Origin: an uncultured bacterium
GTDB taxonomy: Bacteria > Cloacimonadota > Cloacimonadia > Cloacimonadales > Cloacimonadaceae
Reading direction: 5' to 3'
Assembly (NCBI GenBank): GCA_937924555.1
Contig: CALDSN010000098.1
Location: 28,976-92,975 of the forward strand
Length of the DNA stretch: 64,000 nt
Shown: piece after piece, positions 6,448 to 61,236 of the stretch
How the letters are laid out: each line of letters starts with the position of its first letter
How positions within the stretch are numbered: the stretch's first letter is position 1
Notes under the pieces: model-generated
What the model saw: the letters and a program-made list of their open reading frames with translations, nothing else
What the model was told of the DNA's origin: nothing
Databases searched by the model: none
Position numbers and translations under genes: made by a program

Positions 6448-6554
6448 CTTAGCCCTTGCCTATGGGGTTACCGTTGAGATACGGTTGCGATTCCCAGTGA
6501 TTTGCTGGGAGGCGCAACCGCATCTCAACGGTAACCCCATAAGCAAGGGCTAGG
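6448..6554. repeat. Long intergenic inverted repeat (42-bp arms)
   Basis: 6448-6489 pairs with 6513-6554 (2 mismatches, 1 G.T); inner TCCCAG/CTGGGA stem. Confidence 0.9.
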
Positions 6555-6580
6555 AAGCGAGAAGGAGAAACCCGTGCATT

Positions 6581-6650
6581 TATTTCGCTACACATAGAAA
6601 TAGCTTGACGAATAAGCAGCCCCTGCTAATGTATCGCTAAATAACGAAAT
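6581..6650 (+). promoter_or_regulatory. sigma70 promoter flanked by two putative ArsR operators
   Basis: TTGACG 6605-6610, TGnTAATGT 6624-6632; TATTTC-N10-GAAATA 6581-6602 and a similar copy 6631-6650. Confidence 0.65.
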
Positions 6651-7260
6651 GGATGTGGATATGGATGCCTTACAGTTGTTTAAGGGATTGGCGGATGAAT
6701 CCAGAATGCAGATTATCCGCTTGCTCAGAACCAAGCCCTATTGTGTGGAAGATATCGCCGAAGAGCTTCAATTGGCGGTTTCCACCGTGTCGGCACACTT
6801 GAAGAAGCTGCAAAGTGCGGGCTTGGTGTATGCCGTAAAAGTGCAATATTACAGTGTATATCATCTAAAGAAGGAGATATTGGAGATGAAACTAAATGAG
6901 ATTATGCCTCCTGAGGCAGAGATAAAGCCGAACAGGACGGAGATTCTGCGCAACAAAGTGTTGCAGACCTATTTCCGGGATGGCAAGGTTAGCCGTTTGC
7001 CCACCCAAAACAAGAAGCGGTGGATAGTGTATCTGGAGATAATAAAGCTCTTTGAGCCGGGGAGAAGCTATCCTGAAAGAGAACTGAATGAGCTTATTGC
7101 CACCGTGTATGAGGACTATTGCATGGTGCGCCGTGAGCTGGTTGATGAGGGAGTGCTGAGCCGCCAGGATGGGATATACCGGCTGGTGGAGAACTATGAA
7201 GCCAATCCGGGCTTTTACCAAAAGATTTGGCGGATGAGCGAGGAAAGCTTGGAGGCGTAG
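6649..7260 (+). CDS. ArsR/SmtB-family regulator with C-terminal DUF2087
   Basis: FKGLADESRMQIIRLL...STVSAHLKKL; LPTQNKKR...YPERELN...DYCMVRRELVD. Confidence 0.88.
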   Translation: MDVDMDALQLFKGLADESRMQIIRLLRTKPYCVEDIAEELQLAVSTVSAHLKKLQSAGLVYAVKVQYYSVYHLKKEILEMKLNEIMPPEAEIKPNRTEILRNKVLQTYFRDGKVSRLPTQNKKRWIVYLEIIKLFEPGRSYPERELNELIATVYEDYCMVRRELVDEGVLSRQDGIYRLVENYEANPGFYQKIWRMSEESLEA

Positions 7261-7377
7261 CAAACAAGACGAAGCCAAGAATTGAGTTGACAAATATTCT
7301 TGGCTTTGTCCCCTTGCAAAAAAGATAAAGCAAGGGGTTGGCGGGCTTTGCTTGCCGGCAAAGATGGTGGTAAACAC

Positions 7378-8919
7378 ATGGTAGGAAAAGCGCTTACATA
7401 CACAACCATTGGCATTGATGCGCAACAGGTATCCGTGGAGTGCGACAGCAGTTCCGGCTTTTATGTGGTGAATATCGTGGGGATGGCGTCCTCTGCAGTC
7501 AAGGAAAGTAAGGACAGGGTGTTTGCCGCCATTAAGAATGCGGGATATGACACCGCTCCCCGAAGGTATACCATAAACCTCGCACCGGCGGATATCAGGA
7601 AGGATAGTGCAGCTTTGGATTTACCTATTGCAGTTGCTGTTCTGGGCTGCAACAAGATCATTAAAGTAAACGACTACCGCAAGATAGGCATCATCGGAGA
7701 GCTTTCCTTGGATGGTAATGTTCGTCCTGTTTCAGGTGTGTTGCCCATTGCCATTGCTGCCCGAAAAGACAACATCGATACTCTGATTGTCCCCTTTGAG
7801 AATGCGGAAGAAGCAGCCATCATCGAAGGCTTGAATGTTATACCCGTTACTTCCCTGCGTGAATGTGCCGATTGGCTTACCGGGCAGATAAATCTGGTTC
7901 CCGCCTCGGTTGACCGCGATAAGATATTCCAGGTGCTGAACGACTTCCCTGTGGATATGCATGATGTAAAGGGGCAGTTTCAGGTAAAACGTGCTTTAGA
8001 GGTTGCCGCAGCAGGTGGGCATAACCTGCTGATGGTTGGTCCTCCCGGTAGCGGTAAAACAATGCTGGCTCGCAGAGTGCCTACCATTCTGCCGGAGCTT
8101 AACTTGGATGAAGCCCTGGAAGCCACCAAGATTCACAGCGTTGCGGGGATGTCCAAACACTTCCGCAACGGAATCCTTACCACGCGTCCCTTTCGATCTC
8201 CACACCACACTATTTCGGACATTGCTCTAATTGGGGGTGGAGCTTTCCCCAAGCCGGGAGAGGTTAGCCTTTCGCACCGCGGTGTATTGTTTTTGGATGA
8301 GTTACCTGAGTTCAAACGTGCAGTTTTGGAAGTGCTGCGTCAGCCATTGGAGGATGGGATTGTAACCATTTCCCGCGCTGCCACAAGCCTCACCTTTCCT
8401 GCCGAGTTTATGTTGATTGCCAGCATGAACCCCTGTCCTTGCGGCTATAACGGGGCAAACATCCCCAATCATAACTGCAATTGTGAGTGGGGAGCCATCC
8501 AGCGTTACCGCAACCGGGTATCCGGTCCCCTGCTGGATAGAATAGACATTCACGTAGAAGTACCGACGGTTACCTACGCGGATTTGGCATCCTTGCCCAC
8601 GGGCGATAGCTCGGCGGTTATCCGCACCAGGGTGAACAAAGCCAGAGCCATACAGCAAGAGCGCTTTGCTGAGTCCGGGATATTCAACAACTCGCAGATG
8701 AACTCCAAGCTATTGCGTAAACATTGCATTCTGGATACTGCCAGCCATGCTCTGTTGCAGAATGCGATAGATAAAATGGGCTATTCTGCCAGAGTGTTCG
8801 ATCGTATCCTGAAGGTTGCGCGCACCATCGCCGATCTGGAAGGCAGCAAGGGTATAAATAGCGAGCATATAAGCGAAGCAATCCAGTATCGTACTTTGGA
8901 TAGAAAGTACTGGAACTGA
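7378..8919 (+). CDS. comM: YifB/ComM Mg-chelatase-like AAA+ ATPase
   Basis: INLAPADIRKD...LDLPIA, GELSLDG, GPPGSGKT, RPFRSPHHT, LFLDELPEF, SGPLLDRID; true start probably 7378. Confidence 0.95.
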   Translation: MVGKALTYTTIGIDAQQVSVECDSSSGFYVVNIVGMASSAVKESKDRVFAAIKNAGYDTAPRRYTINLAPADIRKDSAALDLPIAVAVLGCNKIIKVNDYRKIGIIGELSLDGNVRPVSGVLPIAIAARKDNIDTLIVPFENAEEAAIIEGLNVIPVTSLRECADWLTGQINLVPASVDRDKIFQVLNDFPVDMHDVKGQFQVKRALEVAAAGGHNLLMVGPPGSGKTMLARRVPTILPELNLDEALEATKIHSVAGMSKHFRNGILTTRPFRSPHHTISDIALIGGGAFPKPGEVSLSHRGVLFLDELPEFKRAVLEVLRQPLEDGIVTISRAATSLTFPAEFMLIASMNPCPCGYNGANIPNHNCNCEWGAIQRYRNRVSGPLLDRIDIHVEVPTVTYADLASLPTGDSSAVIRTRVNKARAIQQERFAESGIFNNSQMNSKLLRKHCILDTASHALLQNAIDKMGYSARVFDRILKVARTIADLEGSKGINSEHISEAIQYRTLDRKYWN

Positions 8920-8973
8920 TTTCCGGCTTTAATCATCAATCTTGTTTTTCAGTTACAAGTCAAAACTTTGAGC

Positions 8974-9002
8974 TTGACACCTTTTTGTAACCAGACTATA
9001 GC
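8974..9002 (+). promoter_or_regulatory. sigma70 promoter of AraC gene
   Basis: TTGACA-17 nt-TATAGC. Confidence 0.55.
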
Positions 9003-9031
9003 AAAACTTATCATATATCAAGGATGAACGG

Positions 9032-9895: not shown

Positions 9896-9936
9896 AAGCG
9901 GTGGCTGGGTTGCTGAATCCGGCTACCGCTTTTATT
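9896..9936 (+). terminator. Intrinsic terminator
   Basis: AAGCGGTGGCTGG...CCGGCTACCGCTT followed by TTTATT. Confidence 0.75.
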
Positions 9937-9961
9937 GTTTCTTCCCAAGAGGAATAGCTTG

Positions 9962-10021
9962 ATCATTGCATAATCATTGCATGTTTCATCCGTAATAAAC
10001 ATGCAATGATCATGTAATGAT
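9962..10021. repeat. Palindromic repeat family A, copy 1 (ATCATTGCATR 11-mers)
   Basis: 25-bp arms, 10-nt loop; related copies at 49183 and 61164. Confidence 0.9.
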
Positions 10022-10122
10022 AGCCGGTGTGGGATAAATTGGTTGACATAAACGGCGGTTCAAATCTATGTAGCTAAAATAGTTGATTTCTTTAACAAGA
10101 TATAAAATAAGGAGTTACCCTA

Positions 10123-14782: not shown

Positions 14783-15631
14783 CTACTTCAATTTGCCAAG
14801 CAAGCTTTTAAGGTGCTCCAATTCCTGAGGGGTCTTGTACTCCAAGGTTATTTTGCCTTTGCCTTTATGCTCCCGCACGGTTGCCTTCACTCTGAACAGA
14901 GCACTCAATTCCTGCTCGAAGCTGCGAGTTAAGGCAGTACGTTTTGGGGTATCATCCTCTTGCTGTAGGGATTGAACATACACCTTTGCCTTCTCTTCTG
15001 CTTGACGCACGGTTAGTTTATACTTCACAATGAACTCGGCAAAGCTTTGGCGATATTCCTCTTCCACAGCCAGCACGCAACGGGCATGCCCGGGGCTGAG
15101 TAACTCACCACCAACCATTCCCTGCACTTCCTTGGGAAGCTTGAGCAGGCGGATGCTATTGGTGATGGTGGCACGGTCTTTGCCCATCACCTGCGCTATC
15201 TGGGCATGAGTAAGCTGAAAGTCTTCCGCCAAGGCGTTGTAGGCAAGTGCTTCCTCCATGGGGTTAAGGTCTTCGCGCTGGATGTTCTCAATTATCGCCA
15301 ACTGCAATTGCTCTTTCTTGCTTACGCTGCGGATAACCACGGGAACCATGTCCAAGCCGGCAAGTTTGGCAGCTTCCAAACGCCTCTCACCTGCGATAAG
15401 CTCGTATTGAGTGGCACTGGTCTTGGTAACTATCAGGGGTTGGATAATCCCGTTTTCTTTAATCGATTCGCTCAGTTCAGCCAAGCGTTGGGGGTCAAAT
15501 GTCTTGCGCGGTTGATAGCTGTTGGGTTGAATTTGCCCAATGGGCAGAGTGCCTATCCCCAATTGGGGGCTGTTGTTACTATCCCGCTCCGGTATCAGAG
15601 CTGATAAGCCGCGTCCAAGGCGTTCATTCAT
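14783..15631 (-). CDS. parB: ParB/Spo0J partition protein
   Basis: LGRGLSALI, QPRKTF, AGERRLEAA, ENIQREDLN, HTH. Confidence 0.96.
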   Translation of the reverse strand: MNERLGRGLSALIPERDSNNSPQLGIGTLPIGQIQPNSYQPRKTFDPQRLAELSESIKENGIIQPLIVTKTSATQYELIAGERRLEAAKLAGLDMVPVVIRSVSKKEQLQLAIIENIQREDLNPMEEALAYNALAEDFQLTHAQIAQVMGKDRATITNSIRLLKLPKEVQGMVGGELLSPGHARCVLAVEEEYRQSFAEFIVKYKLTVRQAEEKAKVYVQSLQQEDDTPKRTALTRSFEQELSALFRVKATVREHKGKGKITLEYKTPQELEHLKSLLGKLK

Positions 15632-15641
15632 TGCGTTTTCC

Positions 15642-16406
15642 TTACTTGCTGCGTTCTATAACTTCGTTGGCAAGGTTCAGGTAGCTCATCGCTCCCGGAG
15701 ACCGAATATCATACAAAAAGATAGGCTTGCCAAAGCTTGGGGCTTCAGTGAGCTTTATGTTACGGGGAATAACCGAGCGGAACACCTTTTCCCTGAAGTA
15801 ACGGTGCACTTCTTTGGCAACCTGCATGGATAGGTTCACTCGTTTATCGAACATGGTGAGAAGTATTCCCAAGATTCCCAGATTGGGGTTTAGATTCTTT
15901 TGAATAAGCCGTATGGTAGTGAGAAGCTGGCTTACCCCTTCCAGGGCATAGTACTCACACTGAATGGGCACCAACACATCTGTGCTGGCAGTCATGGCAT
16001 TCACCGTAAGCAAGCCCAAAGAGGGCGGGCAATCTATCAGGATGAACTCATAGTCGTTCAAAATGGGCTGCAAGGCTTCCTTCAGCTTGTGCTCACGGGC
16101 AAACTCGTGCACCAGTTCTATCTCCGCTCCGGTAAGATTTATGTTTCCCGGAACGCAGAAAAGGTTCTCGGTATTGGTCGGCATAATCGTATTGGCTATT
16201 GGCACTTTGCCGATGAGGGCATCATACACCTGCAATTCCAGCTTTTCTTTATCTATCCCCACCCCGCTGGAGGCATTACCCTGCGGATCAAAGTCTATCA
16301 GCAGAGTCTTTTTCTCCAACACTGCCAAAGCAGCAGCGAGGTTCACGGCGGTGGTGGTTTTCCCCACTCCGCCTTTTTGGTTAACTATGGTAATTACTTT
16401 TGCCAT
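15642..16406 (-). CDS. parA: ParA/Soj ATPase
   Basis: [31 protein letters not shown]. Confidence 0.97.
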
Positions 16407-16432
16407 ATATGTCCTTATCTTTCTGTCTCAGT

Positions 16433-17074
16433 TCAGCGCATCATCAGGTCACGCTGTTTAATTGCCACAATCCTGCGCAGTCCCAGGTCTGCATCGGTCT
16501 TTTCCCACAGGATCTCATGTTTCAGGTTCTCGATATCGGTCAGTTTCTGGGATTTGTAGAACACCAGCAGTCCCGATGGCTTAAGCAGTCTGCGTAGCGG
16601 TGCCAAATATCTTTCTTCCAAAGCCACTGCTCTGCTTACGATGATATCATAGCTGGGGCGACCTGCCAAAAAGGCATAGTCTTCCACCCTGGCGCATACT
16701 ACAGAAGTGTCATTCAAGGATAGTGCTTCGCTGAATTCCTGCACGGCATGGGTCTTTTTTTGCACGGAATCCAGCATCACCATGGTGCAATCCGGAACCA
16801 CCAACTTCAATGGTATTCCCGGGATTCCACCCCCTGAACCGAAGTCCAGCACTGTCTTATCACTCAAATCCAAACATTCCAGAGCAAGCAGGCTGTCAAG
16901 GAAATGCTGCACCCAATATTTCTCTGCAGGGAGGTTGCGGGATACCAGATTAATCATTCGGTTGGCAGAGGACAAAAGCTGAAAATAGTGCTCAAATCGT
17001 CCCATCAACTGGGCTGGGTTGCTAAAGCCTCGTTCCGTGATATATTCTTCAAAGCGTTTCTTGGGTTCGGTCAT
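16433..17074 (-). CDS. rsmG: 16S rRNA m7G527 methyltransferase
   Basis: NLVS...HFLDSL, LDFGSGGGIPGIPL, VSRAV; directly upstream of parA. Confidence 0.93.
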   Translation of the reverse strand: MTEPKKRFEEYITERGFSNPAQLMGRFEHYFQLLSSANRMINLVSRNLPAEKYWVQHFLDSLLALECLDLSDKTVLDFGSGGGIPGIPLKLVVPDCTMVMLDSVQKKTHAVQEFSEALSLNDTSVVCARVEDYAFLAGRPSYDIIVSRAVALEERYLAPLRRLLKPSGLLVFYKSQKLTDIENLKHEILWEKTDADLGLRRIVAIKQRDLMMR

Positions 17075-19602
17075 GGTGTTTCCTCCGGAAGGTTGCGGAT
17101 GAGTGCTTGCACCAGAAATGATTCATCCTTGTTCATGGTCTTAAGCGCAGCCAAAGCTTGCTTGCTACCGATTTGGCGCAAAGATCTTGCTGCGATATAG
17201 CGATATCTCTCGCTGGGGTGAAAGGCATATTGACTGATGGTTTGGATGCTCTCCTCGCTATTGATGCTTCCCAATAGTGAAATGCAGGAGGTGATATACC
17301 TCTTTGCCGCCAAATGCTTGCGGATAGGCACGATAAGGGTGCTGTCTCCAACCCCTGCAATCAGGCTCATTGCCATCTTGGCTTTTGTACTATCCGCATC
17401 TTCCACAAAGTCGAACAAGCGGCTTTTGAAGGCGGGAACCTCATCCAAAAACGCTTCCAAAGCACGATACTCCAGCCCCGAATCTGTGCTAAGCTTATGC
17501 TCCACAATATAGGGCAAAGCTTCCTCACTACGCGCAGCCAAAACCTTGCGGGCTTCTTTAACCCTATTCACCGCAGAGCCAACTTCCCACTCCGCTGCGG
17601 CGGCAAACACTTCGGCAATAGGCGCATCGGCAGCCACCAAGGGATCCATCTCTATTGCTTCCACCTTTTCCTGCACCTGCTCCGAGGTCTGGTCAATATC
17701 CCTGCCAATGCCGTATGAGCCTTTTTGCCATGTCTTGCCATCGGCTTTGGTGCTATCGGGATAGCTATCTTTTCCGCCCATATCCAGGAACAGCCCAATG
17801 CTCCCCGTGGAGCGGGCAAAGGCACCATTGCCATAGTTCTGGGCTTCATTGCGTTCATAACGGTCATCTCCGTTCTTATCCACGAAGATACCCACAGAGT
17901 TGCTAAGCCCCACCCCATTGCCACCTTGTATGGAATAGGCATCGTTGCCGCCATTGTCTATCAAGGCACCCACGCCCCAATCATGCCCGGCACCTTGTCC
18001 CGGTCCGTGACGACTGTAATAGGTGTCGTTGCCGCCACCGTCATACAGGAAGCCGCAGGATAGATGTATCCCGGAGCCTTGGGGGTAGTAGATGGCATTA
18101 TACACATCGTTGCCGCTTTCGTCTATCAGCACTCCTGTGGCATACCAATAGCCCACACCCTGGGCATAAACACCACCGAGATACTTGTCATTTCCTTTTT
18201 GGTCATAAACCAGTCCCAAACCTCCGGCAAAGTCCGAACGCATGCCAAAGCCCATTCCTTGCCCCATGCTGCGGTAATCATCCGGCATCAGAGGAGCATG
18301 GAAGTATTTACCTCCCAATTGGTAAACATCAGCCCCGGCATAATCCAACACGGCACCCACTCCCCGCACACTGCCCATGCCTTGTGCCATGGTTGTGGCA
18401 GTATAGGTGTCGTTCCCGCTGTAATCCACCAGCATGGCAATCCCTTGCATGGCAGCAGCTTGGGAGAACAATCCGCTTTTATAGATATCCTCTCCGGCAT
18501 AGTCCACATGCAGGTTAAAACCCAGCAGACTGCTGAAGGCATAATCATCGGTCAAATATGTGTCATCACCTTTGATGTCAAAGGACACCCCAAGCCCTGC
18601 CAAAGAGCAGAACATTGCGGTTGCTTTTGTGTTGCGAAACAAATCGTTTCCGCTGTAATCCACCAGCAAATAAGCAAGGTTCTTCCTTCCTGCTTGCAGG
18701 TTAAGCTCATAGATGTCGTTGCCCGCAGGCTCCAGCATCAAACAAACAGGTTTATCGGCATAGTCGTATTGGTCATAATAATCCGCCATCACCGTGCCGA
18801 TAACCATCAAGCCGTGCTTAGTGTTTTTCACTATTGGCTTACGGTTGGTGTACAGCAACTTTGCAGCACCGTTTTTCAGCACCTGTGAGGCAGCCAGGTA
18901 TTTGAGGGATGCATTCTGCAGGAACTCGTAGTTTATATCCTGAAATATCTCTTCCAAAGCCTCGGTAGAAAGGCTATCCGGCTTGGGAAGCTGCATTGCG
19001 GCAAGCAGTTCGTTATATTTTTCCCTGTCCTCTTCTTCAGCGAAGGCATTCAGGTAAAAAGCAGTGAGGCTATCCAGGCGGGCAGTGCCAATACCTGTGC
19101 GAATGGCGTTCATTTCACCGCTTAAGCCGTTTAACACCTGCTCCCAAAACTTAAAGATGTCCTTGGGTTTGCGCACCTTGGCTTCAAACATCTTTTCATA
19201 GGCATAATATGCTTCGGCATACACATCAATGGCATCGGGAGTGCCCCAGGCTATACCGGCAAAGTGGTTTAACTGCACAGCGGGGGACGAGCTGTCCATC
19301 CCGGCGCAAATGCCGCGTAAATCTCCCACTTGATTGATGCCGGCAAGCGGATTCTGCAACGCATTCATGTGCCATGCGCTCTTCTGCTTGCAAGAGAGAT
19401 CCCAATCCTTTTCAAAACTGAGGGACTTGCTGCTCAAGCCTGCTTCTTTCAGCATGGCATCAAGCTGCATCGTGGTTGCTTCACCCAGCACGGAATAGTC
19501 CGCAGATAAACTATCAAGCTCCGAAGCCATAGTGGTTTGGGCATATATTAGGGAACATACAAACAATGTAAGCAGAATGGTAAAAAAGCTTTTATGCAAC
19601 AT
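17071..19602 (-). CDS. Large exported protein with ~12 DxxGxDxY glycine-rich repeats and C-terminal HEAT-like repeats
   Basis: Signal peptide from 19602 (RBS GAGG); repeats DYSGNDTY, DESGNDVY etc.; helical C-terminus. Confidence 0.75.
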   Translation of the reverse strand: MLHKSFFTILLTLFVCSLIYAQTTMASELDSLSADYSVLGEATTMQLDAMLKEAGLSSKSLSFEKDWDLSCKQKSAWHMNALQNPLAGINQVGDLRGICAGMDSSSPAVQLNHFAGIAWGTPDAIDVYAEAYYAYEKMFEAKVRKPKDIFKFWEQVLNGLSGEMNAIRTGIGTARLDSLTAFYLNAFAEEEDREKYNELLAAMQLPKPDSLSTEALEEIFQDINYEFLQNASLKYLAASQVLKNGAAKLLYTNRKPIVKNTKHGLMVIGTVMADYYDQYDYADKPVCLMLEPAGNDIYELNLQAGRKNLAYLLVDYSGNDLFRNTKATAMFCSLAGLGVSFDIKGDDTYLTDDYAFSSLLGFNLHVDYAGEDIYKSGLFSQAAAMQGIAMLVDYSGNDTYTATTMAQGMGSVRGVGAVLDYAGADVYQLGGKYFHAPLMPDDYRSMGQGMGFGMRSDFAGGLGLVYDQKGNDKYLGGVYAQGVGYWYATGVLIDESGNDVYNAIYYPQGSGIHLSCGFLYDGGGNDTYYSRHGPGQGAGHDWGVGALIDNGGNDAYSIQGGNGVGLSNSVGIFVDKNGDDRYERNEAQNYGNGAFARSTGSIGLFLDMGGKDSYPDSTKADGKTWQKGSYGIGRDIDQTSEQVQEKVEAIEMDPLVAADAPIAEVFAAAAEWEVGSAVNRVKEARKVLAARSEEALPYIVEHKLSTDSGLEYRALEAFLDEVPAFKSRLFDFVEDADSTKAKMAMSLIAGVGDSTLIVPIRKHLAAKRYITSCISLLGSINSEESIQTISQYAFHPSERYRYIAARSLRQIGSKQALAALKTMNKDESFLVQALIRNLPEETP

Positions 19603-19757
19603 CTTAACCTCTTTGAGAGGCAAATATCTGTCATGGTATCAAATTGTCAAATCCTTTCCCGTTTCTTATCCCGGTTTGTGCCACCACAGGATTAATACGG
19701 GGTATCTGGGGTGCTGTCCCTAATTCCAACATCACTTCACCACCACATATTTCCGAG

Positions 19758-19807
19758 GTGATTCCCTCATCCCACCCGGGAGTCACGAGGGAGTCACCTA
19801 AGAATGA
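19758..19807. repeat. Palindromic repeat family B, copy 1 (GAGGGAGTCAC 11-mers)
   Basis: 39/40 identical to 33049-33088. Confidence 0.88.
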
Positions 19808-19936
19808 TGAGACATTTCTTGCATGAATGTTCGATATACGCAGGATGAAATTAAAAAAGAGGAAAAGAGGATAAGAGAGGGTTAAGCGGTAAACGTTAGA
19901 CGTTAGACGCGCTGCGAACAATTAGCAACCATTCGA

Positions 19937-20498
19937 GTCCCAGCGGGACGGCATTTTAGATAGAAAAGGTGTATGAACTACATATCCTCCCCCCTGAAAG
20001 TCCCATCGGGATGGCAAACTCACCCTCCCATATACCCCTCCAATTAATGATTAATATGCCATCCCGATGGGACATGACATCGATGCCACTTGTGAAGAGG
20101 CTAATAGGATAGCAGGTTAATAATGCAATGTAGGGGGCTTTCCCTGTGTGTTTGCCCAATGAATGCTAATGGAATAAACTATATCCTGCCGTTAAGTTCG
20201 GAGGGCGACATAGCATAGCGACGGGTTCGGAGCATTTGCGCAGCAATGCGCAGACCCTCGTAACGACACCCCATAAAGTGAATAAGCCCCCTGTGGGCGA
20301 CAGATATTAGCCCGGGGTGCAGCGATAGCGTAACCCCGGGTATGGATTGCTGAACCCTTAACAAAATAGATACCCCCCCCCTCCAAGGGCGGATTCTATC
20401 CGCCCTTGGAGGGGGGGGGTAATAAATGATATACATCTAAGCTACTCATATACCTCGGGTTTACACCTCAGGCTAGTATCTTTACGCTCCGTTGGAGC
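19937..20498. repeat. Cluster of REP/BIME-like short hairpins (RAYT-associated style)
   Basis: GTCCC-agc-GGGAC, 17-bp IR 20000-20016/20057-20073, CCCGGGGT...ACCCCGGG, GCTCC-gtt-GGAGC. Confidence 0.6.
20371..20421. repeat. Perfect 24-bp-arm palindrome with C9/G9 ends
   Basis: TA-C9-TCCAAGGGCGGAT-tct-ATCCGCCCTTGGA-G9-TA. Confidence 0.92.
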
Positions 20499-21143
20499 TT
20501 TGCTGTTATGCCCTTTTCTATGCGATTAAATTAAACGCTTCCTCAATAGACCTTGAAATTCGCTGGAGCATTTCTCCACCAAAACCATTCCCCTGCGGTA
20601 GCAACATCGGCGCTATGTATGTTCCTGCCTTTCAAATGGGATAAGCCGGGTCACAAGACACTCCAGATACATGAACTCCCAGCCCTTAAGCAATGCCCAT
20701 AATGATGTGAGGCAATGTGGTTAGTGCTTTTTCCGTTGATAAACATGGCATTGTTATACCATCGCTGAATAACTATACGATGCTTCTACGGATGAGTAGT
20801 AACAAACCGATAATTTTATCCTCATATACAGCTATGAGTTACAGAGATTCTGGGGAACACTTTGGTAAAAATAGAACTAATATACAAAGGAGGAAAGAAA
20901 ATTATGGATATCGTGGCTAATTGGCTAATTAAACTTAGGGCGTCATTAAAATTACATGGTGAATCGAGCAAAAAACAGAGCTTGACTAGGCAGCATAACC
21001 AATAGGGAGGTAATGATGACTTAGATGGATTCACAACTCGCATAGCAATGTGATGGGGGTTTAATTCCCTTAACACAAAGACTTCAAACATAATATTTCT
21101 TTTAATCACTAGGACAAGTAAATAACAACACAAAGGAGAAACA

Positions 21144-32932: not shown

Positions 32933-32970
32933 AAACCGCAACCAATTGATTAGGCTGCGGTTTTTTTTTT
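32933..32970 (+). terminator. Intrinsic terminator after pfkA
   Basis: AAACCGCAACC...GGCTGCGG followed by T10. Confidence 0.85.
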
Positions 32971-33027
32971 GCGGGGTTCATTCTTCTCCCCTCCATTTCC
33001 TTTAAGCTTCCTTGCAGATTTCAGTAT

Positions 33028-33099
33028 TCATTCTTAGTTGATTCCCTCGTGATTCCCTCATCCGACCCGGGAGTCACGAGGGAGTCACGAGGGAGTGAT
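33028..33099. repeat. Palindromic repeat family B, copy 2
   Basis: (T/G)TGATTCCCTC x2, then CCGGGAGTCAC GAGGGAGTCAC GAGGGAGTGAT. Confidence 0.88.
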
Positions 33100-33321
33100 G
33101 TGGCTTGGCAGCAGGTGAGGTGTAGCGAGAAAGTTCTTGACAGATTGCCTTTGCCAATTATCTTGTAGCTATACATCAAAGAGATAAAGCAATCCAAAAA
33201 TCCAATAACCCTCATTAGGGTTTATTATTTGGCAAAACAACCAAAGTTACCATGCCCAATGGGCTTGAACGCTATCTACAAAAGTGGTTATGAAAATCGC
33301 ATAAACCACGGAGCAGGATGA

Positions 33322-41423: not shown

Positions 41424-41617
41424 CTAATCTTCCTAATCCACACATCTCATTAAATTGCTGTTGAAGTCCGCACATTGTCGGGATTTCCTCGCTTTGGCCT
41501 TCGCCAAGGCACACCTCACCTAAGCTTGCTTGATATACATACTAAACATATATCTTTCTGAGGCAACTACAATAATTTAGCTCCTCATCCTACTCGCTTG
41601 TTATAGATATCCTGTCT

Positions 41618-41694
41618 GGTATCAATACGGTATCATTACGGACTTATTGCGGACAAACAGCGCAATGAGTCCGTAATGATACCGTGTTTATCCC
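41618..41694. repeat. Palindromic repeat family C (GGTATCATTAC 11-mers)
   Basis: 25-bp stem 41627-41651/41661-41685, one G.T, 9-nt loop. Confidence 0.88.
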
Positions 41695-41749
41695 AAGAAG
41701 ACAGAGGGGAAATAACAAGAGCCAAATTGGGGAGGCTGAGGGAAGGAAA

Positions 41750-43435
41750 TCAGCGAGGTGTATATAAAAAAACCATATCCCCCTTGTTATACGAGGGATA
41801 GGATGCTACCAAGCGATAATCACGGGTGAACTTCACATTTAAGGCAAGTTCTAGTTTGTGGATGAACTCTTGTTTCAATTCTCCAGCGAGAGACAGCAAC
41901 ACTGGTTTTGAGGGGGTATCACTCTTTGCCAGAATGGCAAAATATAGGTCTTCCGTTTCCCGGGACCACAGCACTGTGCCGGGTTCGAAACTGCCAAGGG
42001 CATACACCAAACCGGGATGCTTATACACGGCGATTATCCCCTGTTGAGGGGTGAAGCCATAACGCGAAAGGATACCCTCTGTCTGGGTTAGGAACGCCCA
42101 CTTTGGGAAGTCATATTTAATGCCCTTATAGGCGTTATTCTGCATGTATAATGGTTGAGAACGGTATGGATGCTGCACATATTGAAACAAGCCGAAAAAC
42201 AGCACATATAGCATGATGTACGCTGCATAGCGGATAGCTTTGGCGGGATAGAATAAACCCAGCAGCAAGCTGAACCCGCCAAGCAGCAGTGAATAGTAGT
42301 ATTTGGCACCCCAATTGAGCGGGTTGGACGAACCCAAGGCACCCAGATAGGGAAGATAGAGCAGCATACCAATAAGGATTATATAGAGGTAATTGTCTCG
42401 CAGGAAACTGGGAACTGCCTTTGCTGTGGTGCTAAGATGCAAGCTGGGGGGAAGTAGCAAATAACCGATTGAGAGGTACACATAGAACAACAGGAACCCG
42501 GAGAGCAGCATCTCACCCTGCAGATGGGAGTATAAGCCGGTGGCGGTTACATAGAGCAGCATCCCCAGGGCTGCCAAGGATGCCGTTAGCTTCATGCCTT
42601 TGTTTCCGGTGAGGAGGGTGATGCGTGCCAGCAGCAGCACAACGAGAGCTTGCAACATGGCGTATAGGTTCAGTTTGGCAATATCCATTAAAGATTTGAC
42701 GAGGAGCTTGGTGTCGTAGATGATATACTTGCTCAGATAGTGGTAGAAATTGCCATAATAGGCTATCATGCCGGGTTGGATAAGCAGATTGAGCAAGGTG
42801 GCGGTGCCAAGCCATGCCAAGATGAAGGCAAGTAAGCTCCTTAGCTTATGTTGTTTGGAACATAGAAGGACGACGCTGCCGAGTAGCAATCCACCCAAGG
42901 CGGTGGGGAGTTTAACCGCCAAGATGAAGGCAAGCGGGATGGCGGAAATAGCTGAGAACAGGGTATGGTATCTTTCCTTACCTGCAGTAGCCAAGAGCAT
43001 GGATGCGGCAAAGAGGGTTAGGAGAAACTGGTTTAAGCTGTTGTAGGAAAGCTCGGAAGGAGAGCCGGCATAGGAGGCGATGAATCCTGAAAAAGCCGCA
43101 AGAAAGATAAAAGGGAAGGATATCGCTTTACTCCGCCTATAGCTAAGCACCAGATATATGCTGCTGGCAAGGTAAGTTGTGGCGAGGAGATTTATCAGCA
43201 ACCCAAGAAAACGCAGGGGTATAAGTCGGCGCATGGCTGTGGGAAGGAGGGAGCGGAGGAGGATATGCTCATACATATGCCCGCCGAACTCCACAGGTTG
43301 GGCATCCTGATAACGCAGCACATAATAGCCTGCATCACTGAAGTCAAAGGCTTTGTCAAAGCCCCAGATGATGGTGCCCAGTGAGAAGAGGACAAGCAAA
43401 ATGCCGATGATGGTGTGAAGCGGTTGCTTAGCCAA
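41750..43435 (-). CDS. Polytopic membrane protein, probable GT-C glycosyltransferase (GtrC-like)
   Basis: TM1 followed by acidic loop FDFSDAGYY; ~12 TM; periplasmic C-terminus; follows gtrA/GT2. Confidence 0.65.
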   Translation of the reverse strand: MAKQPLHTIIGILLVLFSLGTIIWGFDKAFDFSDAGYYVLRYQDAQPVEFGGHMYEHILLRSLLPTAMRRLIPLRFLGLLINLLATTYLASSIYLVLSYRRSKAISFPFIFLAAFSGFIASYAGSPSELSYNSLNQFLLTLFAASMLLATAGKERYHTLFSAISAIPLAFILAVKLPTALGGLLLGSVVLLCSKQHKLRSLLAFILAWLGTATLLNLLIQPGMIAYYGNFYHYLSKYIIYDTKLLVKSLMDIAKLNLYAMLQALVVLLLARITLLTGNKGMKLTASLAALGMLLYVTATGLYSHLQGEMLLSGFLLFYVYLSIGYLLLPPSLHLSTTAKAVPSFLRDNYLYIILIGMLLYLPYLGALGSSNPLNWGAKYYYSLLLGGFSLLLGLFYPAKAIRYAAYIMLYVLFFGLFQYVQHPYRSQPLYMQNNAYKGIKYDFPKWAFLTQTEGILSRYGFTPQQGIIAVYKHPGLVYALGSFEPGTVLWSRETEDLYFAILAKSDTPSKPVLLSLAGELKQEFIHKLELALNVKFTRDYRLVASYPSYNKGDMVFLYTPR

Positions 43436-44387: not shown

Positions 44388-44776
44388 TGCTTTCCTCCTT
44401 GGGGGGAAAATACGATGCGCGACCAATGGTAGTTATAGGCTAAAGTGAAGGGAATAACCATGTAAGAAAGCAGCCAGTTCGGGAAAGGCAATAACACCCG
44501 GAATACATATAACATTCCCATGCCCAGGAGCATCCCCGAAAGATACACGGCGAAGTATTGCAGCATTTGCTTGGAGCTGTGACGGCTGCTGAAGGTGAAA
44601 ATGCGGTTAAGCGTATAGGAAAGCAGAATGGTGGTGATGTAGGTAAGCATGTAGGTAAGCTGCAAGGGTGTGTGATATAGCTCCAAACAAACATATAGGA
44701 TAAGCATGGAGAGGAGGGTTACCACCACTCCCACTCCGGAAAAGCGGATGAAGTCTCTGACACTAAAGTCCCGCAT
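44384..44776 (-). CDS. GtrA-family flippase
   Basis: FIRFSGVG, four TMs, [20 protein letters not shown]. Confidence 0.88.
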
Positions 44777-49158: not shown

Positions 49159-49182
49159 TCTAAAACAAGCTTCTTCCTTGCT

Positions 49183-49254
49183 ATCATTACATGATCATTG
49201 CATAATCATTGCATAAGAAACATGCAATGATTAGGTAATGAGCATGTAATTCAA
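49183..49254. repeat. Palindromic repeat family A, copy 2
   Basis: Three 11-mers per arm; between convergent genes. Confidence 0.88.
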
Positions 49255-49279
49255 ATGAGAGGATAAGAACATAGGAGCG

Positions 49280-55319: not shown

Positions 55320-56225
55320 TCAGCCAATCTCCAGCATTCGGGTAATGCTCTGCTTTGCCTTCTCGGCAATAGCAGGCTCCACTTTGATGAGGTGCTGGTG
55401 TTGAAGGAGAGCTTGATACACATGCTCCATAGTAGTCTTCTTCATGTTCTTACATGCTGCTTGGGTAGATAGGGCATGCATCTGTTTTTCGGGATAAAGG
55501 TGCTTCAAATACTTGGTGAAGGTGGCTTCTGTGGCGATTATTGCCTTATCTCCCGTCTCCATCCATTTTGCCATTCCCCCGGTGCTCATCACCAGGTCTG
55601 CATGGCGCAGGATGTCTTCATCGCACTCAGGATGCGCCAACAGCGTATAATCTGGGTACTTCTCTTTCATGTTTAGCACCTGTTGCTCTGTGAAGCCCCA
55701 TTGATGCACCGGGCAATAACCATGCCAGGTAATCACTTCTCTACTGCTTTGCGCCCCAGCCCATGCCCCAAGGTTTTTGTCTGGAACAAACAGGATAGGT
55801 TTGTCTTCAGGCAATGATTGTAACACCTTCACGGCATTGGAAGAGGTGCAACAGATGTCGCTCTCTGCTTTTACCTGCACACTGGAATTAACATAGCACA
55901 CCACCGGTGATCCGGGATGACGGCTCTTGAAGTCCCTCAGTTGGGCGGCATTAATCATATCTGCCATGGGACAACCCGCATCGAGGGCAGGCAGCAGGAT
56001 TTCGCTATTTGGGTTCAGGATGGCTGCTGTTTCTGCCATGAAGCGCACTCCGCAAAAAACTATCACTTCAGCATCCAATTGCGATGCCAATATGGAGAGC
56101 TGCAGGGAGTCTCCCCGATAGTCTGCCAAGTCCTGTATCTCCACAGCTTGGTAGTTATGCGCCAGGATAACGGCGGATTTTTCTTCTTTCAGCTTCTGTA
56201 TCTTCTTCTTTAAGTCGGTATTCAT
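55320..56225 (-). CDS. nadA: Quinolinate synthase A
   Basis: ILAHNYQ, FCGVRFMAE, AGCPMA, YVNSS, CTSSN, CPVH, HPEC, CKNM. Confidence 0.97.
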   Translation of the reverse strand: MNTDLKKKIQKLKEEKSAVILAHNYQAVEIQDLADYRGDSLQLSILASQLDAEVIVFCGVRFMAETAAILNPNSEILLPALDAGCPMADMINAAQLRDFKSRHPGSPVVCYVNSSVQVKAESDICCTSSNAVKVLQSLPEDKPILFVPDKNLGAWAGAQSSREVITWHGYCPVHQWGFTEQQVLNMKEKYPDYTLLAHPECDEDILRHADLVMSTGGMAKWMETGDKAIIATEATFTKYLKHLYPEKQMHALSTQAACKNMKKTTMEHVYQALLQHQHLIKVEPAIAEKAKQSITRMLEIG

Positions 56226-59463: not shown

Positions 59464-59477
59464 AGGGGTAAGCAAAA

Positions 59478-59553
59478 TGGCATCCCGTAGGGGAATCGAA
59501 CCCCTGTTGCGTGACTGAGAATCACGAGTCCTAGGCCACTAGACGAACGGGAC
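59478..59553 (-). tRNA. tRNA-Glu(CTC)
   Basis: Cloverleaf; anticodon arm CGTGA-TTCTCAG-TCACG; GGTTCGATTCC; encoded CCA. Confidence 0.96.
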
Positions 59554-59594
59554 GAATAACAAGCGGTTTTCATAAAATGGCAAAACCAAAAAAC

Positions 59595-59669
59595 TGGCGA
59601 CCCCTAGGGGAATCGAACCCCTCTTGCAAGAATGAAAATCTTGAGTCCTGACCGATAGACGAAGGGGTC
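59595..59669 (-). tRNA. tRNA-Glu(TTC)
   Basis: Anticodon arm CAAGA-TTTTCAT-TCTTG; T-loop; encoded CCA. Confidence 0.96.
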
Positions 59670-59675
59670 GCAAAC

Positions 59676-59750
59676 TGGTGATCCAGGGCAGGCTCGAACT
59701 GCCGACTCTCTGCTTAAAAGGCAGATACTCTACCACTGAGTTACTGGACC
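59676..59750 (-). tRNA. tRNA-Lys(TTT)
   Basis: Anticodon arm TCTGC-CTTTTAA-GCAGA; GTTCGAG; encoded CCA. Confidence 0.96.
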
Positions 59751-60080
59751 TATTTTCGGTTAAGTTTTCTCACCAAATTTAGGAGCCCGGTTTCTGTCAA
59801 GGAAAAAGTGGTTGCTTTTCTGCCACATACCACTCATTTACATTCTGTCACGCATTTCTGAAGCATGACTATGGGAGTGTCTTTCCTTATTTGTTGCTAT
59901 CTGAGTTGTTTGCTGGCTTCCGAGGGCATGAATTAGGTTGACAGATTTGATATTATGCAATTTATGCTTGCGGCTATCTCAGTTTACTTACTGGCACAGC
60001 TTGATATAGCCATGTAGTGTAGATTGAATGTTGTACGCTTTTCGATGCACTCATCTAATAAGAATAAGTGGGAGTCCCCT

Positions 60081-60243
60081 ATGAAACAGTTGTTGTTGAT
60101 TTTGATTACATTGTGCTTTGTTGTGATTAGCTATGCCCAAACCCCTGTATGGCAATGGACTACCGGAGCAACTGTGAGCGGAAGTCAGTTTTGTAAAGAT
60201 GCTTGCTTTGATAGTAATTGCTAAACTTGGTGGAGAGCTGTAG
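60081..60243 (+). pseudogene. Collapsed remnant of a secreted SBBP-type beta-propeller protein
   Basis: RBS GGAG, signal peptide, AQTPVWQW..., stop after 47 aa; +1 frame reads IVIAKLGGEL*. Confidence 0.6.
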
Positions 60244-60283
60244 TGACCTTTGACATTTACAATATGCTTGCTCTAACTCACGC

Positions 60284-61150
60284 TTGATGCACTACCAAAC
60301 CTATAAACGGATTCTCTCGCCCTCTGGGGGGATGAATATCTACCGGGGCTGTAATCACGGTTGTATTTATTGCGACAGTCGCAGCAAATGCTACGGTATG
60401 CTGCACGATTTCGAGGATATAGAAGTAAAAACTGATGCTCCAGTTATGCTGAGAGAAGAGCTTAAATCCAAACGTAAAAAGTGTATCATCGGCACCGGGG
60501 CTATGAGCGATCCATACATTCCCCTGGAAGCAGAACTGCAATACACTCGCAGGTGCCTGATGGAGATTGCGGAGCAAGGCTTTGGCTTAGCGATACAAAC
60601 GAAATCCAAGCTCATCCTGCGAGATTTGGATTTACTGCAAGAGATTAACCGCAATGCCCGTTGTGTGGTGCAAATGACGCTAACCACATACAATGAATCT
60701 CTATGTAAGCTGCTGGAACCGGATGTGTGCGGCACTGCCGAAAGAGTGGAAGTATTACAGATACTGCATGACAATCATATTCCCACCGTGGTGTGGCTGT
60801 GCCCTATCCTGCCTTTTATCAACGATACGGAGGATAATCTGCGTGGAATATTGGGTTATTGCCGAGAAGTGGGAGTGCGAGGCATCCTGAACTTCGGAAT
60901 TGGCATGACTCTGCGCGAAGGTAACCGAGAATACTTCTATGCCAAGCTGGATCAGCATTTTCCATTGCTACGGCAGCGTTATGTAAGGAGTTATGGCAAC
61001 AGCTATATCCTCAACTCTCCCAATCACAAAAGCCTGATGCGCATCTTCAATGCTTATTGCGATGAGGCTGGTATCTTATATGGTGAGAACAGGATATTTG
61101 CATATTTGAGGCAGTGGGAACCGGATGCTGAGCAATTGGAGATTTTCTAA
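60284..61150 (+). CDS. Radical SAM protein, SplB/Rv2578c-like
   Basis: MNIYRGCNHGCIYCDSR, GAMSDPY, IQTKS, PILPFIND. Confidence 0.9.
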   Translation: MMHYQTYKRILSPSGGMNIYRGCNHGCIYCDSRSKCYGMLHDFEDIEVKTDAPVMLREELKSKRKKCIIGTGAMSDPYIPLEAELQYTRRCLMEIAEQGFGLAIQTKSKLILRDLDLLQEINRNARCVVQMTLTTYNESLCKLLEPDVCGTAERVEVLQILHDNHIPTVVWLCPILPFINDTEDNLRGILGYCREVGVRGILNFGIGMTLREGNREYFYAKLDQHFPLLRQRYVRSYGNSYILNSPNHKSLMRIFNAYCDEAGILYGENRIFAYLRQWEPDAEQLEIF

Positions 61151-61163
61151 GCCCTTTCTTGGA

Positions 61164-61236
61164 ATCATTGCATGATCATTGCATGTTTATTACGGACAAA
61201 ACATGCAATGATTAGGTAATGATTATGCAATTCAAG
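61164..61236. repeat. Palindromic repeat family A, copy 3
   Basis: ATCATTGCATG x2; loop is near reverse complement of copy-1 loop. Confidence 0.88.

Follow-up and report, generated by a model that had tools for sequence, protein, structure and literature searches.

The pneumococcal BOX, Neisseria Correia and enterobacterial ERIC elements are MITEs of ~50-150 nt, imperfectly palindromic, intergenic and found in either orientation, and in BOX elements the number of internal modules varies. In parC of plasmid R1, ParR binds 11-bp iterons, one per helical turn, an arrangement also found at other ribbon-helix-helix operators. REPIN and REP-BIME elements accompany RAYT transposases in Pseudomonas and Enterobacteria. 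REP sequences have stems of 5-13 bp (PMC3733652), and the REPIN description (PMC3116915) portrays long hairpins dispersed through intergenic regions.

We analysed a 64-kb stretch of DNA (hereafter the window) from an uncultured bacterium of the Cloacimonadaceae (Cloacimonadota) that contains seven hairpins (Table 1). With moderate confidence, we propose that they belong to a superfamily of short palindromic repeats (~45-110 nt), non-coding and dispersed, that extends across the Cloacimonadaceae, is REPIN/MITE-like in kind, operates at the DNA level and changes by 11-nt slippage. This lineage-wide group is apparently undescribed. Like REPINs and REP-BIMEs, the elements are short, non-coding, intergenic, palindromic and multi-copy, form several lineage-specific families per genome with long vertical persistence, and may stand beside differing elements, as in BIMEs. 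However, they carry no GTAG/CGTC tag, their stems are 19-50 bp of tandem 11-nt units rather than short and GC-rich, they occupy divergent promoter spacers besides 3' ends, and the single RAYT of a relative has another, classical REP type alongside. They share size, imperfect palindromy, intergenic location and either orientation with the BOX, Correia and ERIC elements, and variable module number with BOX; but here the module is just 11 nt and itself forms the inverted arms, the unit sequence varies by family while the period is fixed, and neither a target-site duplication nor a parent IS was recognised at the elements. The tandem 11-bp units in two blocks recall parC and, by analogy, would imply protein binding in helical phase. 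Unlike in parC, the two blocks are inverted, giving a palindrome capable of forming a hairpin or cruciform, and the elements are chromosomal and dispersed (~1 per 9 kb in the window), with no partition operon beside them; the parA-parB genes at 14.8-16.4 kb adjoin none.

Hairpins of the window

Table 1. Position, structure and setting of the seven hairpin elements; strand '.' denotes no assigned strand.
Element	Position	Strand	Inverted repeat	Structure	Fold; A-model score	Setting
X6.5 hairpin	6448..6554	.	6450-6552, arms 92% complementary	107 nt, near-perfect; arms ~48-50 nt, loop 7 nt	-96.4 kcal/mol, z = -14.4	Divergent spacer, Por_Secre_tail gene (5237-6232, minus) and HTH_5/DUF2087 gene (6649-7260, plus)
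A family, subtype A1	9946..10029	minus	9962-10021	16-nt loop TTTATTACGGATGAAA on minus strand	100.0 bits minus, 59.6 plus	Begins 7 nt past canonical terminator (~9922-9955) of AraC/GyrI-like gene; ~100 nt upstream of PFOR gene (10123)
B family, short	19735..19815	.	~19758-19801 (shorter)	GGTGATTCCCTCA / loop TCCCACCCG / GGAGTCACGA GGGAGTCACC; 1 + 2 units; left flank contains CCACAT	z = -4.8	At margin of a 1.5-kb region free of ORFs; gene 17071-19623 (minus) lies downstream
B family	33015..33110	.	33039-33087/96	(TGATTCCCTCG) x2, loop TCCGACCCG, (GGGAGTCACGA) x2.5		~70 nt downstream of canonical terminator (~32935-32970) of PFK gene; upstream of TTGACA promoter-like site at 33137
C family	41613..41696	.	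41617-41695	ATCAATACGGT ATCATTACGGA CTTATTGCGGA, loop CAAACAG, complementary units after	-57.1 kcal/mol, z = -10.2; 36.5 bits, E = 3.7e-5	Between two minus-strand genes, 54 nt past stop codon at 41750
A family, subtype A2	49175..49258	plus	49186-49250	Outer module CTTCCTTGCT, then 3 + 3 units, short loop AAGAAA	92.3 bits plus, 61.0 minus	Between convergent GNAT (stop 49158) and MFS (stop 49280) genes
A family, subtype A1	61156..61245	plus	61163-61224	Loop TTTATTACGGACAAAA, then outer module TTCAAGCAAGGAGG	99.8 bits plus, 59.8 minus	Begins 13 nt past stop of radical-SAM (SPL-type) gene

The first-pass annotation had placed long hairpins at ~6.5, 10.0, 19.8, 33.1, 41.6, 49.2 and 61.2 kb; all seven were recovered, all are intergenic, and all fold far better than shuffled sequence (z-scores of -4.3 to -14.4, with none of 200 shuffles as stable). 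Period-11 arrays detected by Tandem Repeats Finder are confined to hairpin arms (9962, 9992, 33039, 33069, 41618, 49183 and 61164). The units given in that annotation, ATCATTGCATG for A, ATCATTACGGT for C and GTCACGAGGGA for B, proved correct, and at up to one mismatch they lie within the window only inside hairpins, save for a stray match at 55808. Unrelated bacterial DNA (837 kb) contains 14 hairpins with stems of at least 19 bp, none of them 11-nt periodic; the 64-kb window has seven such hairpins, with a lag-11 identity of 0.75-1.0 in five. The shuffles and unrelated genomes exclude chance palindromes, and the window sequence is identical in three independent ENA assemblies, with related copies in JGI, NCBI and Logan assemblies. 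Chance or assembly artefact, for which we found no point in favour, is thereby refuted and retains a negligible probability.

Sequence families and the 11-nt period

The 11-nt period is common to at least 10 sequence families, comprising A, B, C and at least seven others in related genomes. Across elements from at least 10 families, autocorrelation is best at lag 11 in 22 of 23, and pooled identity is 0.63 at this lag versus 0.20-0.30 at others. The description of the arms as tandem 11-mers holds for six of the window hairpins; X6.5, with degenerate units GGTTACCGTTG / AGATACGGTTG and an apical B-like unit CGATTCCCAG, is weakly periodic (identity of 0.43-0.49 at lag 11 versus 0.44-0.45 at lag 6), and 235 kb of related DNA yielded no further copy of it.

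Twelve A copies align end to end with 73% column identity and a conserved asymmetry, namely an outer left unit ATCATTAC and two to three left units versus three right; against a covariance model of the family, A copies score 84-104 bits in one orientation and 43-75 in the other. The model also matches families K (37.9 bits), C (36.5), D (33.3) and J (29.2), along with A-like (33.7) and C-like (31.1) elements, and no score in 719 kb of control DNA exceeded 17.9 bits; it did not detect B or X6.5. A and C further share an apical module, TTATTRCGGACAAA, and lie adjacent to each other in one related genome (L160). On these three grounds A and C are demonstrably related. By sequence, B and X6.5 are not detectably related to them, given the absence of a model match and, for B, an ATCA core in the opposite arm: in families A, C, D, E, I and J it is the left arm that has ATCA and the right arm that has TGAT. 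The suggestion of one diverged architecture had been based on A and C sharing 7/11 unit positions and B and C 6/11; the arithmetic was right, but 6/11 is the chance level given 11 rotations and two strands.

An outer module, CTTCCTTGCT/AGCAAGGAG, is found, like the ATCA unit core, in many families. The motif CTTCCTTGCT recurs beside families A, F, G and K and an A-like element; in the window it has 16 matches versus 6.2 expected, three of them at hairpins. In the architecture that we propose, every element is bounded by an inverted module (often YTCCTTGCT...AGCAAGGAR); each arm has one to three 11-nt units specific to the family, many with an ATCA start, and the apex is a short loop.

Dispersal and comparison of orthologous sites

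Copies of a single family occupy unrelated intergenic sites, within and across genomes and in either orientation. The window holds three A and two B elements, the B copies being 97.5% identical over 40 nt, and A, B and C recur in related genomes at both orthologous and non-orthologous sites; A copies stand in non-orthologous contexts in L048, L127, L130, L159, L160 and L161, L165 has two copies of E, and L173 has three of F. Three contigs terminate within elements (L150, L165 and L167), and a further B copy lies at the extreme end of L167 (8826-8852). As the first-pass annotation had anticipated, unit number varies, and it does so in 11-nt steps: the C copy of L160 (2417-2489), 22 nt from an A element, has exactly one unit fewer (TATCATTACGG).

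At orthologous sites the arms remain largely complementary despite turnover of unit sequence between species at one locus. The site downstream of the radical-SAM gene is occupied in three lineages, including L167 (92.7% nucleotide identity over 4.3 kb) and L168/L169 (84% amino acid identity), and the entire element is inverted in L168. The site after the PFK gene carries B, B' or H variants, with B-related elements in L173/L174 (units CACAGGAGTCA) and L170-172 (units GGGAGGGTTAC) and none in L176/L177. Upstream of PFOR, an orthologous copy is present in L150 (flanks with 91% nucleotide identity), L163 and L165 lack the element, and different repeats occupy this position in L164. No empty-versus-filled orthologous pair was recovered, so insertion was not seen directly. 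Among strains of one species (L179-L188) element presence is invariant, and in different species elements persist at orthologous positions; mobile DNA would account for this, but old sites, possibly domesticated or functional, would do so equally well.

We propose that copies spread by a DNA-level process, either transposition or recombination, that is probably enzyme-catalysed. Resident copies would then evolve in place through slippage during replication from one 11-nt direct repeat to another, and hairpin-templated (quasipalindrome) correction may keep the arms matched. The period, one helical turn, could be the footprint of a putative protein bound to consecutive units along a single face of the helix.

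We found neither an autonomous partner nor a cognate enzyme; the sole transposase-like gene seen is a RAYT carried by L179 and its relatives (a 198-aa Y1_Tnp protein scoring 78.6 bits against NF047646, cut-off 80, with E. coli TnpA-REP, 4ER8, as its best PDB match). Its occurrence in Cloacimonadaceae, and the long-hairpin, dispersed, intergenic habit reminiscent of REPINs (PMC3116915), would suit a reading in which the elements are ordinary REP/REPIN sequences and a RAYT gene at another genomic locus mobilises them. Yet the L179 gene is flanked by short GC-rich classical REPs, GTGGGAAGCAGAAGCTTCCCAC and GGCAAGCTTCCGCTTGCC, rather than 11-nt-unit hairpins, and these REPs are absent from the window; GTAG/CGTC tetramers lie near an end in three of 28 elements, the chance level; and the stems greatly exceed those of REPs (PMC3733652). 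We regard this explanation as very unlikely. The earlier proposal of a lineage-specific class resembling REPs or non-autonomous elements is supported, with Cloacimonadaceae families that recur at non-orthologous intergenic sites in several genomes, although they are not classical REPs.

From the strict period one may reasonably infer candidate phased binding sites. In one alternative, the elements would be host-function arrays of such sites on double-stranded DNA, kept for chromosome organisation or insulation rather than mobility; a nucleoid-associated, partition-like or regulatory protein would contact each arm at one 11-bp unit for every turn of the helix. The constancy of the period across sequence-unrelated families, the conserved ATCA/TGAT core at unit starts, the retention of orthologous sites as sequence drifts, the stable presence among strains, the location between transcription units past terminators and the analogy with ParR at parC are all consistent with such a function. 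However, A, B, C and X6.5, co-resident in one window, differ so greatly in their units that a single protein could recognise little beyond ATCA, which B has in the opposite arm; moreover, all spacer types are occupied, the distance to promoters is not fixed, and the elements lack an associated candidate for the binding protein. We consider this alternative unlikely.

Gene context and transcript strand

All 25 elements checked are intergenic, with ~15 in tandem, two in convergent and four to five in divergent spacers; they lie in either orientation and often after canonical terminators. These placements bear on whether the elements instead act as RNA, as the structured-RNA option of the first-pass annotation would have it. 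Long transcribed hairpins would then be RNase III sites, 3'-end stabilisers or translation-control structures, with an AAGGAG-like outer module paired with CUCCUU and the period reflecting the helical repeat of A-form RNA (11 bp). The predicted RNA hairpins are very stable, some copies are intercistronic (e.g., at 61.2 kb), G·U pairs occur, and the outer module resembles a Shine-Dalgarno/anti-Shine-Dalgarno pair. Stems of at least 22 bp are long enough for RNase III. Against this, neither G·U pairs (23 on the sense strand, 21 on the antisense) nor strand stability (sense favoured in eight copies, antisense in seven, equal in three) shows a sense bias. The asymmetric A element is more often antisense than sense to flanking transcription (five versus two independent copies) and is inverted at an orthologous site. 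Further, several copies come after a canonical terminator or occupy the promoter spacer of divergent genes, compensatory covariation is almost absent from the alignment (one of 20 pairs), and an Rfam search returned no match beyond spurious sub-threshold miRNA-hairpin hits. Action as RNA is accordingly disfavoured, and we judge it distinctly unlikely.

Intrinsic terminators offer a final comparison, being likewise stem-loops 3' of genes. The window hairpins differ in having far longer stems and no trailing U-tract, and the adjoining genes are already terminated upstream of them (9922-9955 and 32935-32970, and likewise in relatives at the post-PFK site). In our reading, the elements work neither as mRNA structures on the sense strand nor as intrinsic terminators.

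Intergenic hairpins with 11-nt arm units

The first-pass annotation had described seven intergenic hairpins whose arms are built from 11-nt units, and this description is borne out by the agreement of their positions, tandem arrays, folding scores and a control on unrelated DNA. An inverted-repeat finder recovered six of them, and the short 19.8-kb copy was seen by reading the sequence (see table). Period-11 arrays (Tandem Repeats Finder) are confined within the window to the arms of these hairpins, as are the three 11-mers quoted in that annotation (at most one mismatch), bar one stray match. All seven are more stable than their dinucleotide shuffles (z from -4.3 to -14.4; none of 200 shuffles as stable). 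The control comprised 837 kb of unrelated bacterial DNA, namely loci of unrelated genomes matched by chance to the degenerate pattern ATCATTRCNNNATCATTRC, and gave 14 hairpins whose stems reach 19 bp or more, all of them lacking an 11-nt period, versus seven such hairpins in the 64-kb window, five with a lag-11 identity of 0.75-1.0. Among the matches listed for ATCATTRCNNNATCATTRC on genome contigs, almost all were due to chance, the contig L048 holding the sole genuine one.

The arm period likewise stands as a shared property. Across 23 non-redundant elements from at least 10 families, 11 was the best within-arm autocorrelation lag in 22 (lags 4 to 17 compared), with a pooled identity of 0.63 at lag 11 versus 0.20-0.30 at all other lags; in the 6.5-kb hairpin the periodicity is weak, lag 6 tying with lag 11. 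Arms hold one to three units and may differ from each other (1 vs 3 in L048; 2 vs 3 in A1, the family A subtype with a 16-nt loop), and the family C copy of contig L160 differs from that of the window by exactly one unit, TATCATTACGG.

Contigs of three ENA digester metagenome assemblies are identical in sequence to the window, so the hairpins do not stem from assembly errors. PFOR and PFK of the window share 80-92% identity with proteins whose source is named as Candidatus Cloacimonetes or Cloacimonadaceae, and the Por_Secre_tail proteins are consistent with a Cloacimonadaceae assignment. The elements occur at 7 copies per 64 kb (about 1 per 9 kb) and are flanked by ordinary housekeeping genes; all seven are intergenic, as are all 25 elements checked overall. 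The 64-kb window holds no transposase or recombinase gene.

The 19.8-kb copy lies at the edge of a 1.5-kb ORF-free region of lower GC, adjoining gidB-parA-parB and near the cumulative GC-skew minimum; the region contains a perfect 24-bp hairpin with C9/G9 runs, an inverted sequence pair and small tandem repeats (AAAAGAGG x3, ACGTTAG x2.4). An oriC at 19.6-21.1 kb was considered and is unconfirmed, neither a DnaA-box cluster nor parS being found there. DnaA-box-like 9-mers (TTATCCACA, at most one mismatch) number 45 in the window versus 16 expected from shuffles; they are spread rather than clustered, and the excess may be compositional.

Hairpin elements and other features in the window and in contigs of relatives (positions refer to the window unless an L-numbered contig is named)
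Feature	Position	Units or remarks
6.5-kb hairpin	6450-6552	
Family A, 10.0 kb	9962-10021	
Family B, 19.8 kb		short copy
Family B, 33.0 kb	33039-33087	
Family C, 41.6 kb	41617-41695	
Family A, 49.2 kb	49186-49250	
Family A, 61.2 kb	61163-61224	
Family D	L163, from 13600	ATCATACCACT
Family E	L165/L166	CTATCATCTTA / CTATCCTCTCT
Family F	L173	three copies; CACTCAAACCC
Family G	L176/L177	
Family H	L170-172	
Family B'	L173/L174	CACAGGAGTCA
A-like element	L176	
Families I, J, C-like	L179	
Family K	L170, 20540-20623	ATCATTGCCCA
198-aa Y1 transposase, RAYT-like	L179:13445-14620	
Empty site of RAYT-like gene	L184:12484-12565	
Spacer of 10.0-kb hairpin	9877-10122	gene-order change
Spacer of 33.0-kb hairpin	32903-33322	gene-order change
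8-nt tandem array	L164:1-45	TTCCACCY x5; contig start
gidB-parA-parB	14783-17074	minus strand
ORF-free region	19624-21143	
Inverted pair	~19995-20075	CCCATCGGGATGG...CCATCCCGATGGG
24-bp hairpin	20371-20421	
36-nt tandem repeat	44608-44680	2 copies, 78% match, with perfect 12-nt repeat; between/overlapping minus-strand ORFs
tRNA cluster	59478-59750	Glu-CTC, Glu-TTC, Lys-TTT; minus strand
11-mer arrays	L151:84-135; L122:1560-1650 / L156:1545-1640; L125:309-380 / L157	ATCATTGCATG / ATCATGCAATG, or TGCAACGAT-type units

Families in relatives and the reach of the superfamily

A scan of metagenomes with the A-hairpin pattern returned 43 loci, of which about 8 were genuine and the others unrelated palindromes; together with L048, it places family A copies in seven further contigs. 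By BLAST, L150 alone is orthologous to a window site (10.0 kb), the other contigs representing unrelated contexts, and in L160 an A and a C element lie 22 nt apart. Further hairpins with very different units were found near the relatives' homologues of the window's PFOR, PFK and radical-SAM genes, and each family also occurs at several loci. No A or B copies were found in viral contig, phage and plasmid collections.

Family A is a defined, asymmetric unit, its 12 copies aligning over about 75-85 nt with a mean column identity of 73%. The left part of the consensus reads (CTCCTG)CT-ATCATTACNTR-ATCATTGCATR, followed by TTTATTACGGAYRAAA or by a third unit plus AAGAAA/ATGAAA; after the loop, the right part reads CATGCAATGAT-TAKGYAATGAT-CATGCAAT. 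The outer left unit is always ATCATTAC and faces GCAATGAT, so that an A·C mismatch is conserved. A covariance model trained on these 12 copies favours one orientation by 25-45 bits, which allows elements to be oriented; of the independent copies compared with co-directional neighbouring genes, two run sense and five antisense.

The proposal that all these hairpins form one superfamily is valid for their architecture and, among the families, for a core group, as indicated by matches to the A model, a shared ATCA core and a common outer module. The A model scores family K at 37.9 bits, C at 36.5, the A-like element at 33.7, D at 33.3, the C-like element at 31.1 and J at 29.2, with a top match of 17.9 bits on 719 kb of unrelated DNA; it finds no match to B, the 6.5-kb hairpin, E, F, H or I. 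Families A and C have in common ATCATTRC and an apical TTATTRCGGACAAA module. ATCA opens the unit on left arms, and TGAT on right arms, in A, C, D, E, I and J, and family B has the ATCA core in the opposite arm. By our own calculation the core has a chance of about 4-5% per family and is seen in 5 of 9 independent groups, which is unlikely to be fortuitous even when corrected for motif choice. The outer inverted module, YTCCTTGCT...AGCAAGGAR, flanks A, F, G, K and the A-like element and occurs near B and H (16 matches to the motif in the window versus 6.2 expected). The A model detected no sequence kinship of B and the 6.5-kb hairpin, and it is the architecture that places them in the superfamily; the 6/11 similarity between B and C units, which had been offered as a sign of kinship, is at the chance level.

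Behaviour at orthologous sites

The 61.2-kb site, after the radical-SAM gene, is also occupied in L167 (92.7% nucleotide identity over 4.3 kb) and in L168/L169 (84% amino acid identity), and is thus filled in all three lineages. Window and L167 differ in unit content, and in L168 the whole element is inverted, including the 2-vs-3 unit asymmetry and the loop. Downstream of PFK, each species has a canonical terminator, followed by B in the window, B' in L173/L174, H in L170-172 and no element in L176/L177; the synteny beyond differs in every species compared. Upstream of PFOR, an A element is common to the window and L150 and absent in L163 and L165. The sites upstream of PFOR and downstream of PFK are therefore occupied in a subset of the species, and synteny shifts there too.

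Two side observations concern the same sites. The hairpin spacers of PFK and PFOR are precisely where gene order differs among species (window versus L163-L165, L170, L173 and L176), and the elements may coincide with rearrangement breakpoints. Contig L164 starts with an unrelated 8-nt tandem array, which directly precedes the conserved PFOR promoter and occupies the position that the A hairpin has in the window.

At the strain level, three 11-nt-unit hairpins are invariant in presence across L179-L188, strains of one species, with no gain or loss; L178 is the same strain as the window (99.994% identity). No clean empty site was recovered among the orthologous loci compared, and the element flanks show no consistent direct repeat that would represent a target-site duplication, the exact ends being undefined without an empty site. 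From the radical-SAM, PFK and PFOR comparisons and the strain invariance, we conclude that the elements are long-lived residents, which change in place and are occasionally flipped or replaced. That they are immobile arrays of phased binding sites serving a host function we regard as unlikely.

All six contigs with the PFK variant P0245 (L189-L194) end at one point, 102 nt after the PFK stop; their last ~100 nt carry direct repeats, TTTT(T/A)ACCCCTAAACGACACA(A/T)C, at ~30-nt spacing, which are probably the start of a CRISPR array.

DNA-level and competing readings

Hairpins of this stability, about 15 of which lie in tandem spacers, could act in transcripts, and a structured RNA had been among the original suggestions. 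We consider an RNA-level role unlikely: the elements occur in both orientations, and in the 18 that lie between co-directional genes, G·U pairs are balanced (23 sense, 21 antisense) and folding is more stable on the sense strand in 8, on the antisense strand in 7 and the same on both in 3. Besides the roughly 15 tandem spacers, 2 convergent and 4-5 divergent ones hold elements. With Rfam 15 the three tRNAs alone pass the gathering thresholds, no element matching; in E-value mode only miRNA-precursor models appear, at 21-30 bits versus thresholds of 50-100. Compensatory covariation in the A alignment is seen in 1 of 20 pairs, as expected of a young repeat family and not of a conserved RNA. G·U and stability balance, spacer types, Rfam and covariation together disfavour a sense-strand RNA function. 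An intrinsic-terminator function is likewise disfavoured: none of the seven window hairpins is followed by a T-run, and canonical hairpin-plus-T-run terminators already stand upstream of the 10.0-kb and 33.0-kb copies and of the L170/L173 counterparts. We therefore favour a DNA-level entity.

Several other likenesses were set aside. Promoter and terminator scans gave the counts seen in shuffles. For the 61.2-kb copy, a Shine-Dalgarno role of the outer module was dropped because the ATG at 61248 does not share the frame of the ORF downstream and the gene call in L167 starts ~120 nt later. Likenesses to Fur boxes, PhoB boxes, CsrA sites (GGA loop), DNA-uptake sequences and tyrosine-recombinase core sites each suit one family or orientation only.

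Among DNA repeats, the elements resemble those of REP/REPIN-RAYT systems in being intergenic, and with 7 copies in 64 kb and contigs breaking inside them they may also be present in many copies per genome. Catalogued REPs have stems of 5-13 bp, loops of 2-20 nt and a GTAG or CGTC tag, the GTAG type being associated with RAYT genes (PMC3733652). The stems here are longer (19-50 bp), the loops compatible (3-20 nt), and GTAG, CTAC, CGTC or GACG lies within ~8 nt of an end in 3 of 28 elements, which is at chance level. A 198-aa, RAYT-like Y1 transposase is encoded in L179 and six sister contigs (L180-L183, L186, L187); its score with the NCBIfam ‘REP-associated tyrosine transposase’ model is 78.6 bits (cut-off 80), and its top solved-structure match is the E. 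coli TnpA-REP (4ER8). Short, GC-rich REPs of classical type flank its gene (GTGGGAAGCAGAAGCTTCCCAC and GGCAAGCTTCCGCTTGCC, GGGAAGC-N-GCTTCCC type), with a run of four GGGAAGCAGAAGCTTCCC-type hairpins among them. In the sister strains L184, L185 and L188 the gene is absent, with empty sites after PFK, L184 keeping a single REP pair. This is apparently a REPtron that strains of one Cloacimonadaceae species may have or lack. Its REPs are absent from the window and are not 11-nt-unit hairpins, and in the L179 group, the relative in which this was tested, no RAYT flanked by 11-nt-unit hairpins was found. Thus, the Cloacimonadaceae have an ordinary REP-RAYT system besides the 11-nt-unit elements, which are ruled out as the REPs of that RAYT, at least in the L179-type genome; that RAYTs mobilise them as REPs is, all told, very unlikely.

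With MITEs the elements share inverted termini, the whole element being an inverted repeat with the conserved outer module CTCCTGCT/CTTCCTTGCT ... AGCAGGAG/AGCAAGGAG. They form a superfamily of palindromes dispersed between genes in either orientation, whose arm period is strictly 11 nt; unit changes go in 11-nt steps, and arm complementarity is kept as the sequence turns over. Our preferred reading, held with about as much confidence as doubt, is that they are REPIN/MITE-like DNA elements. They would spread via a DNA transaction and evolve in place by slippage between direct 11-nt repeats, their arms being kept matched by hairpin-templated correction. The period may be a protein footprint with one unit per helical turn; the closest parallels are ParR on the 11-bp iterons of R1 parC and multi-site transposon ends. 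As strict one-helical-turn modularity is kept across many sequence-unrelated families in one phylum-level lineage, a new protein-DNA system can be tentatively proposed, although we hold it unlikely: a putative Cloacimonadota recombinase, transposase or chromatin protein would read 11-bp modules on hairpin, cruciform or duplex DNA, with the modules of each family co-evolving, in a manner REPIN-RAYT-like and yet mechanistically distinct. What confidence the REPIN/MITE-like, binding-array, RNA-level and RAYT readings leave falls to artefact and to unlisted explanations.

Lineage-specific intergenic palindromic repeats are well known as a kind; arms modular by the helical turn across sequence-unrelated families are an unusual variant. 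In a limited full-text literature, we found no published account of Cloacimonadota repeat content or of 11-nt-unit hairpin repeats. The Cloacimonadota are abundant, uncultured syntrophs of anaerobic digesters, and palindromic repeats at this density break short-read assemblies. Three contigs are cut within an element, L150 at its start and L165 and L167 at their ends (L167 in a B copy), which is the usual effect of multi-copy repeats on such assemblies. The elements may also mark the synteny breakpoints after PFK and before PFOR, and in them the concerted evolution of hairpin arms can be studied as it occurs in nature. If the 11-nt period is a protein footprint, it would provide a sequence-independent signature for the partner protein and for similar elements in other uncultured phyla.

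Separately, tandem or palindromic arrays of very similar 11-mers or of TGCAACGAT-type units were seen in contigs of unrelated metagenomes (L151, L122/L156, L125/L157), Ga-numbered contigs that we take to be from termite-gut and freshwater samples; modular palindromes like these may thus occur outside the Cloacimonadota too.
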